Source: an uncultured cyanobacterium
GTDB taxonomy: Bacteria > Cyanobacteriota > Cyanobacteriia > Cyanobacteriales > Nostocaceae
Assembly: GCA_963706595.1 (NCBI GenBank)
Contig: OY970166.1
Span: forward strand, 32,001-96,000
DNA length: 64,000 nt
Reading direction: 5' to 3'
The notes beneath the pieces are model-generated. The model saw only the letters and a program-made list of their open reading frames with translations. It was not told the DNA's origin and did not search any database. The translations under genes were made by a program, and so were the position numbers. Of this stretch, positions 1-25,954 are shown in pieces. The stretch's first letter is position 1, and every line of letters starts with the position of its first letter.

Positions 1-204
1 TGTCGTGATTTTGGGGTTCCTTGTGCCGATGGGATTACGATTGATCTGAAGCTATCTCATCAGGCGATCGCGGAAGCAATTGGTTCAACTCGTGTAACCG
101 TAACTAGGTTACTAGGAGATTTACGTGAAAAAGAGATGATTTCTATCCATAAAAAGAAGATTACCGTGCATAAACCTGTGACTTTAAGTCGGCAGTTCAC
201 TTAA
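1..204 (+). CDS. ntcA: global nitrogen regulator NtcA, C-terminal part (truncated by window edge)
   Basis: Frame 1 translates to [67 protein letters not shown], the CRP-family HTH of NtcA; followed by the usual DUF3084-yqgF genes. Confidence 0.97.
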
Positions 205-262
205 AAGTCATGAAATTTTGCTAAAATGTGGTAAACTCAGGGGGTCTATCATAGACATTAAA

Positions 263-433
263 GCCTGCCCGTGAACTGCGGGAAAGTAAACGCCCAAGAC
301 TTGAATCAACGGTTCACGGAAACAACACTCGGCCTGTTTTGGCAAACAGGGTGTGCCTGAGAACCCAATTAATTGGGATATACGAGGCAAAATCTTTGTA
401 GAATCTCACTATCCCTAGTAGTGGGAGTATCAA
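263..433 (+). ncRNA. orphan TnpB omegaRNA-like / IS200-IS605 right-end-like structured element
   Basis: Ends TGTAGAATC-hairpin-GAGTATCAA, paralleling the right end of the TnpB element in this window (TGTAGAATC-hairpin-GAGTGTCAA); several internal hairpins; no adjacent tnpB ORF. Confidence 0.55.
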
Positions 434-487
434 AAGGTAATCAATGAAAGTAGTAGGCTGTATCTGGAAGCATTTCGGTAGCTAAAG

Positions 488-1873
488 ATGACCACCGGGT
501 ACATCCTTATCGCAGCAATGTTAATTTTGGGGGGCGTAATTGCCACCGTGGGCGATCGCATTGGCACACGAGTTGGCAAAGCACGCCTCTCACTGTTTAA
601 CCTTCGTCCTAAAAAAACGGCTGTATTGGTAACTATCTTTACAGGTGGATTGATCTCGGCATCAACATTAGGAATTTTATTTGCTGCTGATGAAGGATTG
701 CGGCAAGGGGTATTTGAGTTAGAAGATATTCAAAAAGACCTGAGAAACAAGCGGGAACAGCTAAAAATTGCGGAAACTGAGAAAAGTCAGGTAGAAACTG
801 AATTAAGTACAGCTATTCGTGAACAAAGTAAAGCACAGCAAGACTTGCAGGTAATTAATAAGTCCTTACAAGCAGCTAACGCTAAACAACAAGCAACAGA
901 AACTCAACTTCAACGGACTCAAAAGCAATTAGGTGAAATAGTAAATCAGTATCAACAAGCCTTAACTGAACTGCAAAGCGTTTACAATCAAAGAGAGACA
1001 TTGCAGGGGGCGATTGAAGAACTGAGGGCAGAACGACAACGACTTTTTGCGGAAGCGAAAACAGCTATTAACCAACGCGATCGCAAAATTGCCCAACTGG
1101 ATAGAGTGATCAAAAAACGCAATCAAGAAATTGCGGCGCGAGAGCAAGTGATAGCGACAAGGGAATCTCGCCTCAAAGAATTGGAAAGACAACAGAATTA
1201 TTTAGAAGCAGAAGTCGCAAGGCTGGAAAAATATTATCAGTCATACCGTGACCTCCGTTTAGGTAAGCTGGCATTGGTTCGCAATCAAGTTCTGGCTGCG
1301 AACGTGGTTCGCGTTAATCAAGCCAGTGCAGCTCGTGAAGCAGTCACACAACTTTTGCAAGCAGCTAACCAGAATGCCAATATATATTTAACTGAACCAG
1401 GAGAAAATCCGACAAATAAAGATTTGCTCCCTATTACCCAGAAAAGAGTAGAGCAAATCAGCCAGCAGATTAAAGATGGTCGAGAGTACGTTGTGCGAAT
1501 CTTCTCTGCTGGTAATTACGTTAGGGGAGAAAACCAGATCGAATTTTTTGCAGATGCAGCCCGAAATCAACTGGTTTTTTCAAAAGGTGAGGTACTGGCG
1601 ACAACTACTGCTGATCCCAGAACTATGACATCTTATCAGCTATCGCAAAGACTCGATTTGCTGATTTCTGCTTCGGAATTTCGGGCGCGGAATGCCGGAA
1701 TTGTCGAGGGTGTGTTAAGAGAAGGGACTCATTTACGCTTTTTCTTACAACTAAGACAGTATAATCAACCGTTAGAAATCAAAGCGATCGCCAGTGAAGA
1801 TACATATACAGCAGGACCTTTAAGAATAAAGCTATTGGCAATTTTCAACGGGGTAGTTATTTTTAACACCTAA
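488..1873 (+). CDS. DUF3084 domain coiled-coil membrane protein
   Basis: N-terminal GGVIATVGDRIG..KARLSLFNLRPK motif, two TM segments, long coiled coil; conserved position after ntcA. Confidence 0.88.
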   Translation: MTTGYILIAAMLILGGVIATVGDRIGTRVGKARLSLFNLRPKKTAVLVTIFTGGLISASTLGILFAADEGLRQGVFELEDIQKDLRNKREQLKIAETEKSQVETELSTAIREQSKAQQDLQVINKSLQAANAKQQATETQLQRTQKQLGEIVNQYQQALTELQSVYNQRETLQGAIEELRAERQRLFAEAKTAINQRDRKIAQLDRVIKKRNQEIAAREQVIATRESRLKELERQQNYLEAEVARLEKYYQSYRDLRLGKLALVRNQVLAANVVRVNQASAAREAVTQLLQAANQNANIYLTEPGENPTNKDLLPITQKRVEQISQQIKDGREYVVRIFSAGNYVRGENQIEFFADAARNQLVFSKGEVLATTTADPRTMTSYQLSQRLDLLISASEFRARNAGIVEGVLREGTHLRFFLQLRQYNQPLEIKAIASEDTYTAGPLRIKLLAIFNGVVIFNT

Positions 1874-1923: not shown

Positions 1924-2367
1924 ATGACTTTTAGTGAATTTTCACCAACCCAACCAGTGATTTTGGGCTTCGACCCCGGTAAAGATAAATGTGGTCTAGC
2001 AGTTATGGGACTAGATAGGCAATTGTACTACCACCAAGTTGTGACGGCACAAAAGGCGATCGCCACCATTGAGACATTACGTCAACAGTTTCCTGTTTCC
2101 TTACTGGTCATGGGTAATCAAACCACCTCGAAACAGTGGAAACAGCAACTGAGTGAGGTCTTAGTAGAGCAACTAAGTATCATTTTAGTAGATGAGCGCT
2201 ACAGCACCTTAGAAGCACGCGATCGCTATTGGCAGATGTATCCACCCAAAGGGCTAACGAAACTCTTGCCACAGGGCATGAGACAGCCACCGAGACCCAT
2301 AGATGACATAGTTGCTCTCCTCTTAATTGAAAGATATTTAAATCGCCTGACTACGAGTGTTGACTGA
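1924..2367 (+). CDS. yqgF: YqgF/RuvX family pre-16S rRNA processing nuclease
   Basis: LGFDPG, VDERYST and IDDIVA RNase H-fold motifs. Confidence 0.85.
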   Translation: MTFSEFSPTQPVILGFDPGKDKCGLAVMGLDRQLYYHQVVTAQKAIATIETLRQQFPVSLLVMGNQTTSKQWKQQLSEVLVEQLSIILVDERYSTLEARDRYWQMYPPKGLTKLLPQGMRQPPRPIDDIVALLLIERYLNRLTTSVD

Positions 2368-24498: not shown

Positions 24499-25859
24499 TT
24501 GACACTCACCGAATTAGAAATTCGGGGATTCTACATTCACTGACTCGCCGTTAGACGACAGGCTTGCGCCAACCGCCCAAGAGGGCAAATCTCCTGTAGC
24601 GTAAGTTCCGGTATGCCCTACCGTACTGAGTCCTAGTCTCAAAATATTGATTGCGGCATTGGTATCTCTGTCTTCTACATATCCGCAATGTGGGCAAACA
24701 TGAGTCCTTGTAGACAAAGATTTCTTCACTTTCTGTCCGCAGTTAGAACAATTTTGGCTTGTATTATGGGGTGGCACTGCAACAGTTACCGAACCATATT
24801 TATGACCAAAATATTCTAACCAAGCGCGAAAAGTATACCAACCAGCATCACTAATCGATTTAGCTAGATGTCGATTTCTTACTAGCCCTTTCACATTTAA
24901 ATCTTCATAGGCTACCAAATCATTAGATTGGATGACGGAGTACGCTAATCTCTTGCAATACTCTTTTCGTTGCCTACTTACCCTTAAATGCTTGCGAGCA
25001 TACCTATTTCTAGCTTTGTGGTAATTGTTTGATTGCCGTTGCTTGGCTTTTTTCTTAGCTGCACTAAACTTCTTGGATTTCTTGCGGTTAGCACGGTTTA
25101 ACTGTTTTTCTGACTTACGGTAGAACTGGGGAGAAGGTTCTACATTACCTTTGTTATCAGCAATGAAGTATTTCAATCCCAAATCAATGCCAACTATTTG
25201 GTTCGTGGGTTGTTTTTCCACTCTCACATCAACATCAACCGCAAATTGAGCATAGTATCCGTCAGCACGACGCACCAAACAGACACGCTTAATTTGCTTG
25301 ATGTCATAGTAATTAAGGTCGTAAGTCCCTTTTAGCTTGAGAGTGCCAATACCTTTCTTATCTGAGAAGGTTATGGCAATTCTTGTTTCTGAAAGCTTCC
25401 ATCCGGTTGATTTATATTCAACTGAACGGCAATTTTTCTTGAACTTGGGGAAACCCTTTTTACCCAAAACCTTTTTCTTGCAGTTATCGTAAAACCGAGC
25501 TATTGCACTCCAGGAACGTTCAGCAGCAGACTGTCTAGCCATTGAGTTGAGTTCATCAGCAAAGGAAAATTCAGCGGCGAGTACCGCACAATATTTATTG
25601 AGGTCATACCTACCAATGTTTTTATGATCCATCCAGTAGCGCAAACACTTATTTTGGATGAACTGGGAAGTACGAATCGCCTCATCAATAGCGCGATACT
25701 GCTTGTCTTTTCCTTTGACCTTGAACTCGTAAACAATCATGGTTCGACCAATTGACCACAAATTTATGTTACCACAATTGACATAAGACGGCTAAATGAA
25801 TTTAGCGCATTCGCTTAGATCCCCCGAATGGAATTCGGGGGTTTTACGCATCACGGCTC
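24499..25859 (-). mobile_element. IS200/IS605-family element encoding only TnpB (IS891/IS1341-like)
   Basis: Minus strand reads TTAT|GAGCCGTGATGCG with left hairpin CCCCCGAAT-TCC-ATTCGGGGG; right end CCGAATT-TCT-AATTCGG-TGAGTGTCAA; no TSD, no tnpA. Confidence 0.88.
24514..25740 (-). CDS. tnpB: RNA-guided endonuclease TnpB
   Basis: RuvC motifs GIDLG, YEDL and DRD.NAA.NI; CSNC/CPHC zinc ribbon; start taken at MIVYEFK. Confidence 0.95.
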   Translation of the reverse strand: MIVYEFKVKGKDKQYRAIDEAIRTSQFIQNKCLRYWMDHKNIGRYDLNKYCAVLAAEFSFADELNSMARQSAAERSWSAIARFYDNCKKKVLGKKGFPKFKKNCRSVEYKSTGWKLSETRIAITFSDKKGIGTLKLKGTYDLNYYDIKQIKRVCLVRRADGYYAQFAVDVDVRVEKQPTNQIVGIDLGLKYFIADNKGNVEPSPQFYRKSEKQLNRANRKKSKKFSAAKKKAKQRQSNNYHKARNRYARKHLRVSRQRKEYCKRLAYSVIQSNDLVAYEDLNVKGLVRNRHLAKSISDAGWYTFRAWLEYFGHKYGSVTVAVPPHNTSQNCSNCGQKVKKSLSTRTHVCPHCGYVEDRDTNAAINILRLGLSTVGHTGTYATGDLPSWAVGASLSSNGESVNVESPNF

Positions 25860-25863
25860 ATAA

Positions 25864-25894
25864 GGGAGTAGGGAGTAGGGAGTAGGGAGTAGGG
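25864..25894. repeat. STRR heptamer (GGGAGTA)x4
   Basis: Tandem copies directly flanking the IS left end. Confidence 0.8.
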
Positions 25895-25954
25895 GGAAAG
25901 AAATTTACGCAAAACTTTTTTCACTCAAAACTTTCCTCACTCAGCACTCAGCAC

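Follow-up and report, generated by a model that had tools for sequence, protein, structure and literature searches.

The window analyzed in this study is a stretch of 64,000 nt from an uncultured cyanobacterium of the Nostocaceae (GenBank assembly GCA_963706595.1, contig OY970166.1, positions 32,001 to 96,000 of the forward strand). Near its start, the genes ntcA and DUF3084 are separated by a spacer of 283 nt (205-487). The greater part of this spacer (208-433) is probably a mini-element of the IS200/IS605 group that has no tnpB and carries an omegaRNA, the guide RNA of TnpB. Such elements are known as palindrome-associated transposable elements (PATEs). Most of the left end of this copy has been lost, and it likely persists as an immobile, near-neutral relic rather than as a working guide-RNA gene. 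A non-autonomous IS605 relic had been one of the identities proposed in a first-pass annotation of the letters alone, and this proposal was supported: the scaffold was homologous to those at tnpB 3' ends and finished in the right-end module of the window tnpB, and neither a tnpB gene nor a functional left end was present.

Alignment of ntcA-DUF3084 spacers, a check that the first-pass annotation had suggested, showed that element-free relatives hold a conserved spacer at the same site. Spacers were cut from 27 loci holding both flanking genes (those of G004 and G007 were not among them). In five congeners of the genome from which the window was taken (hereafter the own genome), i.e., G001, G002, G003, G009, and G010, another spacer, conserved and about 166-192 nt long, was found, with the form TAAAAGCAATTGGGGAGG...TTTCAGCTATTGCCAA...CACAAG, then ATAATG..GAAAGTAGTAGGCTG. 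This form was recognizable in 13 of 18 genomes of other genera, while in the remaining five the conserved edges were the same and enclosed a different sequence. The element occupied the site in the own genome and in three of the eight congeners read (G008, G006, and G005), where it sat between TAAAAG and AAGGTAAT; it was absent there from all five other congeners and from all 18 other-genus genomes. A contig of one relative joined position 207 to position 434, skipping 226 window letters and carrying 112 others instead. Divergence from the ancestral spacer began between 207 and 208, and the right junction fell between 433 and 434; since the relative's contig and the spacer alignments agreed, this junction lies exactly after TCAA (430-433). 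Segment 208-433 is foreign to the site and, in four genomes, stands in for approximately 112 nt of ancestral spacer.

A BLAST search with the spacer against 61 genomes (own genome included) gave matches in 34, mostly to approximately 226-283 of the query (window 430-487) only; the matches in G004 and G007 began at query positions 241 and 230, respectively, and thus covered the DUF3084 leader only. A clean empty site for the copy in G007 was not seen in the own genome, the spacer being too diverged. The first-pass annotation had also considered a structured leader of the DUF3084-yqgF operon. Position between two genes and strong folding would suit a native, riboswitch-like cis-regulatory leader, or an element of the ntcA 3' end, but the same RNA stands beside unrelated genes in other genomes and, with another and conserved spacer occupying the site in most relatives, a native leader was excluded and retains next to no probability.

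The ancestral spacer was itself structured. Orthologous spacers (L006, L007, L009, L010, L012-L016, L019, L021, and L023) contained a long-range helix (GGGGAGGTGGAG ... TTCCACC..CC) with double-sided changes between genera, e.g., GGGGAAGCAGAG/CTCTGATTCCCC. Within this helix lie a T-run and a GGTAAATCTAAAAT box, the latter conserved; the helix is gone in the own genome and three congeners. Since this conserved and structured sequence right after ntcA gave way to the relic, the four genomes are natural deletion mutants of the spacer. At window position approximately 1046, DUF3084 of one outgroup and of the five ancestral-spacer congeners includes an in-frame stretch of 21 nt that no element-bearing genome has; its absence from all four is a second shared character of the element-bearing haplotype and speaks for the history proposed below.

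Complete copies of the element were found in congener G008. Three identical copies with different flanks consisted of a 114-nt left end followed by a 180-nt scaffold that ended in GAGTGTCAA, and started directly after TTAT (...CTTAT, ...TTTAT, and ...TTTAT). The left end comprised a hairpin like that of the right end, a GGGATGAAGGC motif, a second hairpin, and a -10-like box. The same plan was observed after TTAC or TTAT in other genomes; the orthologous copy of G008 was the one most like the window copy. The G008 left end was near-identical to the sequence upstream of an own-genome tnpB gene (2407340-2408563), which also follows TTAT. Because of these near-identical left ends, the family was recognized as an IS200/IS605 element without a protein gene whose ends are also those of resident tnpB elements. 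One of the identical copies (L103, contig C126 of G008) is embedded in a fragment from another tnpB gene, with a flank 71% identical to residues 360-408 of an own-genome TnpB.

Alignment of the window copy to the complete copies did not begin before TCATGAAA (208). Approximately 80 nt of the outer left end were missing, including hairpin and TTAT junction, and the ntcA stop codon lay 3 nt upstream. The orthologues in G008 and G006 had the same left junction, while a further deletion had occurred there in G005. As only the last 36 nt or so of the left end were kept, which is consistent with the first-pass remark that no clear insertion-sequence left end was visible, the window copy should be immobile. 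Measured against the properties of a PATE, no gene lies inside the element; several copies with unrelated flanks exist in the family, not in the own genome; and both ends are present in the family, not in the window copy. The latter is a truncated derivative and not a complete PATE.

The annotation had advised a BLAST search with the segment. One copy was found in the own genome, by BLAST as well as with R1, a covariance model built from family copies; relatives held solo copies and scaffolds linked to tnpB. The copies of relatives were at unrelated sites, all intergenic. Of 201 genomes from the taxonomic family, 25 had family copies according to BLAST with 236-433 as the query. At E<=1e-8, 27 of the 61 relatives had R1 matches, with 1-26 copies per relative; such matches occurred in 8 of 10 congeners, 21 of 36 genomes of the taxonomic family, and 5 of 25 from other families of the order. 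At E<=0.01, five genomes gave 18, 50, 26, 22, and 13 matches, the weakest of which were tnpB 3' ends. In aligned copies, a TGnTAnnAT box preceded the GTCAG..AAGAC start by 6-7 nt, and a core of about 190 nt ended in GAGTGTCAA. All copies terminated in GAG(T/C)(G/A)TCAA, and their flanks were unrelated from the next base on. None of 39 copies without tnpB had a TnpB body upstream (about 1.5 kb of flank examined on either side).

Covariation among the copies was used to evaluate the proposed RNA structure. Its eight helices were drawn by hand on one copy, which somewhat favors the structure, since RNAalifold on a plain MAFFT alignment recovered the structure only in part. On 20 copies, 84.1% of cells were paired, vs. 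35-50% when partners were slid; 26 of 39 pairs had changed on both sides, and none of 500 shuffles reached any of five measures. Searches of Rfam with window positions 1-1000 (E<=10) returned nothing relevant, and those with a complete PATE, a tnpB-linked scaffold, and the window tnpB locus (E<=1) returned nothing apart from tRNA. These misses were uninformative because Rfam holds no model for the clade. No match to 208-433 was obtained in a plasmid collection by distant BLAST, and no description of the family in cyanobacteria was found in the literature searched, whose coverage excluded subscription journals.

Homology of the scaffold to the 3' ends of tnpB genes provided evidence of its nature. 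Tested with a panel of 22 TnpB-like frames of the own genome and one from G031, four R1 matches lay in the last 200 nt or so of TnpB frames and extended up to the right end (L083, 104.5 bits; L088, 92 bits; L093, 81.4 bits; L098, 77.8 bits). The L083 protein contained helix-turn-helix (HTH), OrfB_IS605, and TNB domains and matched the solved ISDra2 TnpB with an E-value of 4e-32. Three copies without tnpB gave tblastn matches to the C-terminal tail of the L083 frame, i.e., to scaffold read as protein. Within the own genome, two tnpB paralogues gave the best R1 matches after the window copy itself, each at its 3' end: the tnpB gene of the window (26 bits) and another (20.6 bits). In both cases the score came for the most part from the closing AGAAUC-hairpin-GAGUGUCAA module in the last 35 nt. 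In accordance with the first-pass annotation, the reverse complement of 24499-24535 in the window read TGTAGAATC-hairpin-GAGTGTCAA, the same frame as the right end of the relic, and lay directly 3' of the window tnpB ORF. On these sequence grounds, covariation together with homologous scaffolds that run to the right end of tnpB elements, the 244-433 core is an omegaRNA-type scaffold, as the annotation had supposed.

Further right-end modules and tnpB-linked features were noted in this analysis. Contig C1 of the own genome (G000) contained six further GAATC-hairpin-GAGTGTCAA modules that lacked any match to TnpB in the 400 nt upstream, ending at 1004192(+), 1678441(+), 5009039(+), 5140331(+), 5254961(+), and 1344289(-). 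Two of these scored 19-20 bits with R1; the six represent additional solo ends, or else PATE-like relics, from different subfamilies. No open reading frame (ORF) for a Y1 transposase of at least 80 amino acids was present in the 2.5 kb upstream of elements of the L083/L098 type. Loci L083 (oriented 1-155) and L098 have a similar short frame (start MKTDYIRIKTTF...), divergent and immediately upstream of their L083-type tnpB genes.

Among its four carriers, the element has drifted at about the rate of third codon positions. Identity of the window copy to the orthologous elements was 0.868 (G008), 0.809 (G006), and 0.754 (G005), and the corresponding identities at third codon positions of DUF3084 were 0.805, 0.852, and 0.784. 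The orthologues kept 32, 35, and 26 of the 39 family pairs, respectively, helix P3 being deleted in G005, and stems were conserved no better than unpaired parts. Judged from these sequence comparisons, the pattern looks like slow decay under at most weak constraint.

The 20 nt following the right end (434-453), which would serve as guide, were native DUF3084 leader and conserved with or without the element. The first-pass annotation had seen no target for this guide in the window, and a search of the whole genome (at most 3 mismatches in 20 nt) likewise found no second target, only the own locus, where the site is preceded by TCAA and not by TTAT or TTAC. Three 16-nt matches with one mismatch, none of them directly after TTAT or TTAC, were unremarkable for an AT-rich 16-mer and no more than an AT-rich genome gives. 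Neither an adjacent tnpB-derived gene nor a host target flanked by a transposon-adjacent motif (TAM), which together characterize a TldR-like system, was found; the search for tnpB-derived ORFs covered 3 kb around the element. The alternative identity proposed in the annotation, a domesticated stand-alone guide RNA, is unlikely in view of this native leader, the missing second target, drift near the third-position rate, and the unrelated flanks of the many copies in relatives; the latter was the outcome that the annotation itself had tied to a plain MITE (miniature inverted-repeat transposable element).

For a working stand-alone guide-RNA gene, the RNA would have to arise from a promoter of the element itself, be taken up in trans by a TnpB or a nuclease-dead version of one, and direct cleavage or binding at a match to 434-453. 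Even though the scaffold is whole, a promoter-like box is present, the own genome holds 31 TnpB-like and 6 Y1 transposase matches, and trans use of PATE omegaRNAs has been proposed (available sections of PMC10055086), this possibility is very unlikely: the guide is native flank by construction, the own TnpB nearest to the L083 clade is only 35% identical and has no similar scaffold beside its gene according to R1, and the element has drifted near-neutrally with no tnpB-like ORF alongside. Also very unlikely is a variant in which the relic is in use, its retained promoter and scaffold and its fixed guide, the DUF3084 leader, enabling a TnpB or nuclease-dead TnpB acting in trans to control DUF3084-yqgF, which neighbors ntcA, a nitrogen regulator gene, or to police alleles of the locus.

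Evidence on transcription came from sequence features and from RNA contigs. The TGGTAAACT box at 229-237 aligned with TGGTAnAAT or TGCTAnAAT in nearly all family copies and read TGGTAAACT, TGGTAGAGT, and TGGTAAAAT in the three orthologues; a transcription start near 244 was predicted from it. A simple promoter scan of the plus strand returned nothing, as it demands a -35 hexamer, and a simple scan between 100 and 600 detected no terminator-like site, so that RNA from the TGGTAAACT box, if it fires, would enter DUF3084. None of the public RNA runs covered half of a 1.2-kb stretch. In a metatranscriptome library, contig X2 (192 nt) was exact over 286-477 and bridged the right end; its depth was 2.6, it carried no information on strand, ends, or level, and it may represent DNA carry-over. 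Two further shallow RNA contigs covered 603-753 (X5) and 582-779 (X1); no weight attaches to positions that these few contigs leave uncovered. Transcription across the right end may thus occur. It is rather unlikely that the relic has been exapted as a promoter or structured 5' leader for DUF3084-yqgF after deletion of the ancestral upstream spacer. Such a role would fit a -10-like box that faces DUF3084, the absence of an intrinsic terminator in the scanned region, the RNA contig that crosses from 433 to 434 and on to 477, and the replacement of a conserved ancestral spacer with a TAAAAT box and a covarying long-range helix. However, that contig is shallow and strandless, the element drifts near the third-position rate and lacks one helix in G005, and read-through from ntcA or a promoter within 434-487 would serve the operon equally well.

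Several observations weigh against interpretation of the segment as a near-neutral, truncated PATE relic. The scaffold of the window copy is largely whole (35 of 39 pairs), the TG-extended -10-like box is retained in all four orthologues, and the RNA contig bridging the right end is compatible with transcription. Weak constraint is possible, since identity between the own and G008 copies (0.868) exceeds that at third positions (0.805). The DUF3084 tree splits the four element-bearing genomes, G005 pairing with G001 with support of 87/96. In addition, the ancestral bases at the right junction are TTCAC or CTGC and not TTAT or TTAC, so that the original target motif was not recovered, and a second event is required because a simple IS200/IS605 insertion deletes no target DNA.

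A history of the relic that accommodates such a second event can be proposed. Insertion of a complete element probably came first and placed its right end beside AAGGTAAT. A later deletion probably took the outer left end, including the TnpA hairpin and cleavage site, along with most of the ancestral spacer, and the deleted haplotype would then have been passed down to the four genomes. From the TGGTAAACT box, an RNA would start near 244 and proceed through the scaffold into the DUF3084 leader. A TnpB that loaded this RNA would be aimed at a TAM followed by AAGGTAATCAATGAAA; as such a site is not in the genome, the relic RNA would have nothing to cut.

The available sections of the preprint by Meers et al. 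(PMC10055086) state that PATEs "often encode omegaRNAs," which must be used in trans by TnpBs encoded elsewhere, and note omegaRNA-encoding PATEs in Geobacillus stearothermophilus. As far as PATEs are described there, the present family corresponds to them in having no ORF, IS200/IS605-type ends with look-alike hairpins, insertion after TTAT, TCAA termini, multiple copies, and a scaffold for use in trans. It differs in its strongly conserved TG-extended -10-like box right before the scaffold and in combining a scaffold nearest one TnpB clade (L083 type) with a left end that matches another tnpB element, and the window copy differs in having no outer left end. With the ISDra2 TnpB-omegaRNA system (8bf8, 8exa, and 8h1j), the family shares homologous scaffold-bearing TnpBs, a scaffold that overlaps the tnpB 3' end and stops at the right end, and a guide derived from the flank; on the other hand, there is no sequence or Rfam-level match to any curated RNA family, and the window copy has no tnpB.

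TldRs, nuclease-dead TnpB homologues that act as transcription factors with fixed guide RNAs (available sections of PMC10705468), resemble the present case in that a TnpB-type guide RNA lies beside a host gene, outside a mobile element. In contrast to what is described there, the window element has neither an adjacent tnpB- or tldR-like gene nor a TAM-adjacent target, and is conserved, with near-neutral drift, in four congeners only. Nezha and other cyanobacterial MITEs are likewise short, structured, multi-copy, non-autonomous, and intergenic in related cyanobacteria. According to the available sections of the corresponding review (PMC3184786), terminal inverted repeats and flanking direct repeats occur in Nezha, as in its parent ISNpu3, whereas the present family has neither and shows asymmetric IS200/IS605-type ends; Nezha was rejected as an identity for the element, being related to ISNpu3 and not to IS200/IS605.

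The kind of element is already known, while this family is absent from Rfam. The locus itself, one decayed copy of a described kind, is of small import. The family represents a covarying guide-RNA mini-transposon of filamentous cyanobacteria with a predicted promoter, copy numbers that reach dozens per genome, and no Rfam model, and R1 can be used for genome annotation and for mining of TnpB guide RNAs. The chimeric combination of left end and scaffold fits trans use of transposase, nuclease, and guide RNA across elements.

All motifs that the first-pass annotation had listed for the segment were recovered at the same positions. Tandem extended -10-like boxes occurred at 219-227 (TGCTAAAAT) and 229-237; the annotation had treated them alike, and only the second proved to be conserved in the family. 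The TCATGAAA / GGATGAAAGC motif at the left edge recurs among family copies. A CCCG-TGAACTG-CGGG hairpin spanned 268-282, CCTGTTT (333-339) faced AAACAGG (344-350), CCCAATTAATTGGG occupied 364-377, and a hairpin separated TGTAGAATC (397-405) from GAGTATCAA (425-433). Pairing of CCGTGAAC (269-276) with GTTCACGG (312-319), which the annotation had also reported, was present; it is specific to the window copy, where it arose by two substitutions, and not a family feature. It competes with family helix P1, over which it is favored in the minimum-energy fold. The described high degree of structure was borne out by a folding energy of -68.8 kcal/mol for 240-460, vs. a shuffle mean of -53.8 kcal/mol (z -3.57; 0 of 200 shuffles as good). 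Scanning of 205-487 for ORFs of at least 40 amino acids confirmed that the segment has no tnpB ORF: only a minus-strand TTG frame of 60 amino acids (208-390) and the tail of a 49-amino-acid frame (430-579) were found, and these minus-strand frames are chance-sized. Coordinates of the features are compiled in Table 1.

Table 1. Features of the relic, its flanking genes, and the tnpB element of the window (window positions).
Feature	Position	Strand	Evidence or remark
ntcA, 3' end	1-204	+	stop codon 202-204; part in window with Crp HTH domain
Left-end inner remnant	208-243	+	starts at TCATGAAA; contains both extended -10-like boxes in tandem
-10-like box TGGTAAACT, predicted promoter	229-237	+	aligns with the box of nearly all family copies
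omegaRNA-type scaffold, 190 nt	244-433	+	helices P0-P6; covariation, model R1, homologous tnpB 3' ends
Right-end module TGTAGAATC-hairpin-GAGTATCAA	397-433	+	terminus TCAA at 430-433
Guide position	434-453	+	first 20 nt of flank, native spacer
Native DUF3084 leader, conserved	434-487	+	84-100% identity in element-free genomes of family f1
DUF3084 gene	488-1873	+	Pfam PF11283, 113 bits
RuvX/YqgF-like gene, 3' of DUF3084	1924-2367		PF03652, 35.7 bits
tnpB-only IS200/IS605-type element, same end group	24499-25859	-	right end 24499; left end predicted from 25859
Window tnpB, 415 amino acids	24514-25761	-	Pfam OrfB_IS605 and Cas12f1-like TNB domains

The left boundary of the tnpB element in the window was inferred by analogy with the complete G008 copies and with the left end of the tnpB at 2407340-2408563; the left-end sequence follows TTAT (25860-25863) and contains a hairpin that resembles the right-end hairpin. 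Directly upstream of this TTAT, four tandem TACTCCC heptamers were observed (25864-25895, minus strand).

Identity of the upstream flanking gene was established with the full ntcA ORF (L001:811-1497), which scored 381 bits with NCBIfam model TIGR03697 (NtcA_cyano; cut-off 245). The conserved DUF3084 leader contains GTA-N8-TAT at 450-463, 25 nt ahead of the start codon, which differs by one base from the NtcA-box consensus, GTA-N8-TAC. The leader also varied in length among relatives: a 22-nt insertion (ATGCCTCCGGCACAC...GTGAA, a small hairpin) between 473 and 474, missing from the window, G001, and G002, was present in L002, L003, L004, L012, L015, L019, L023, and L025, and occurred independently of the presence of the element.

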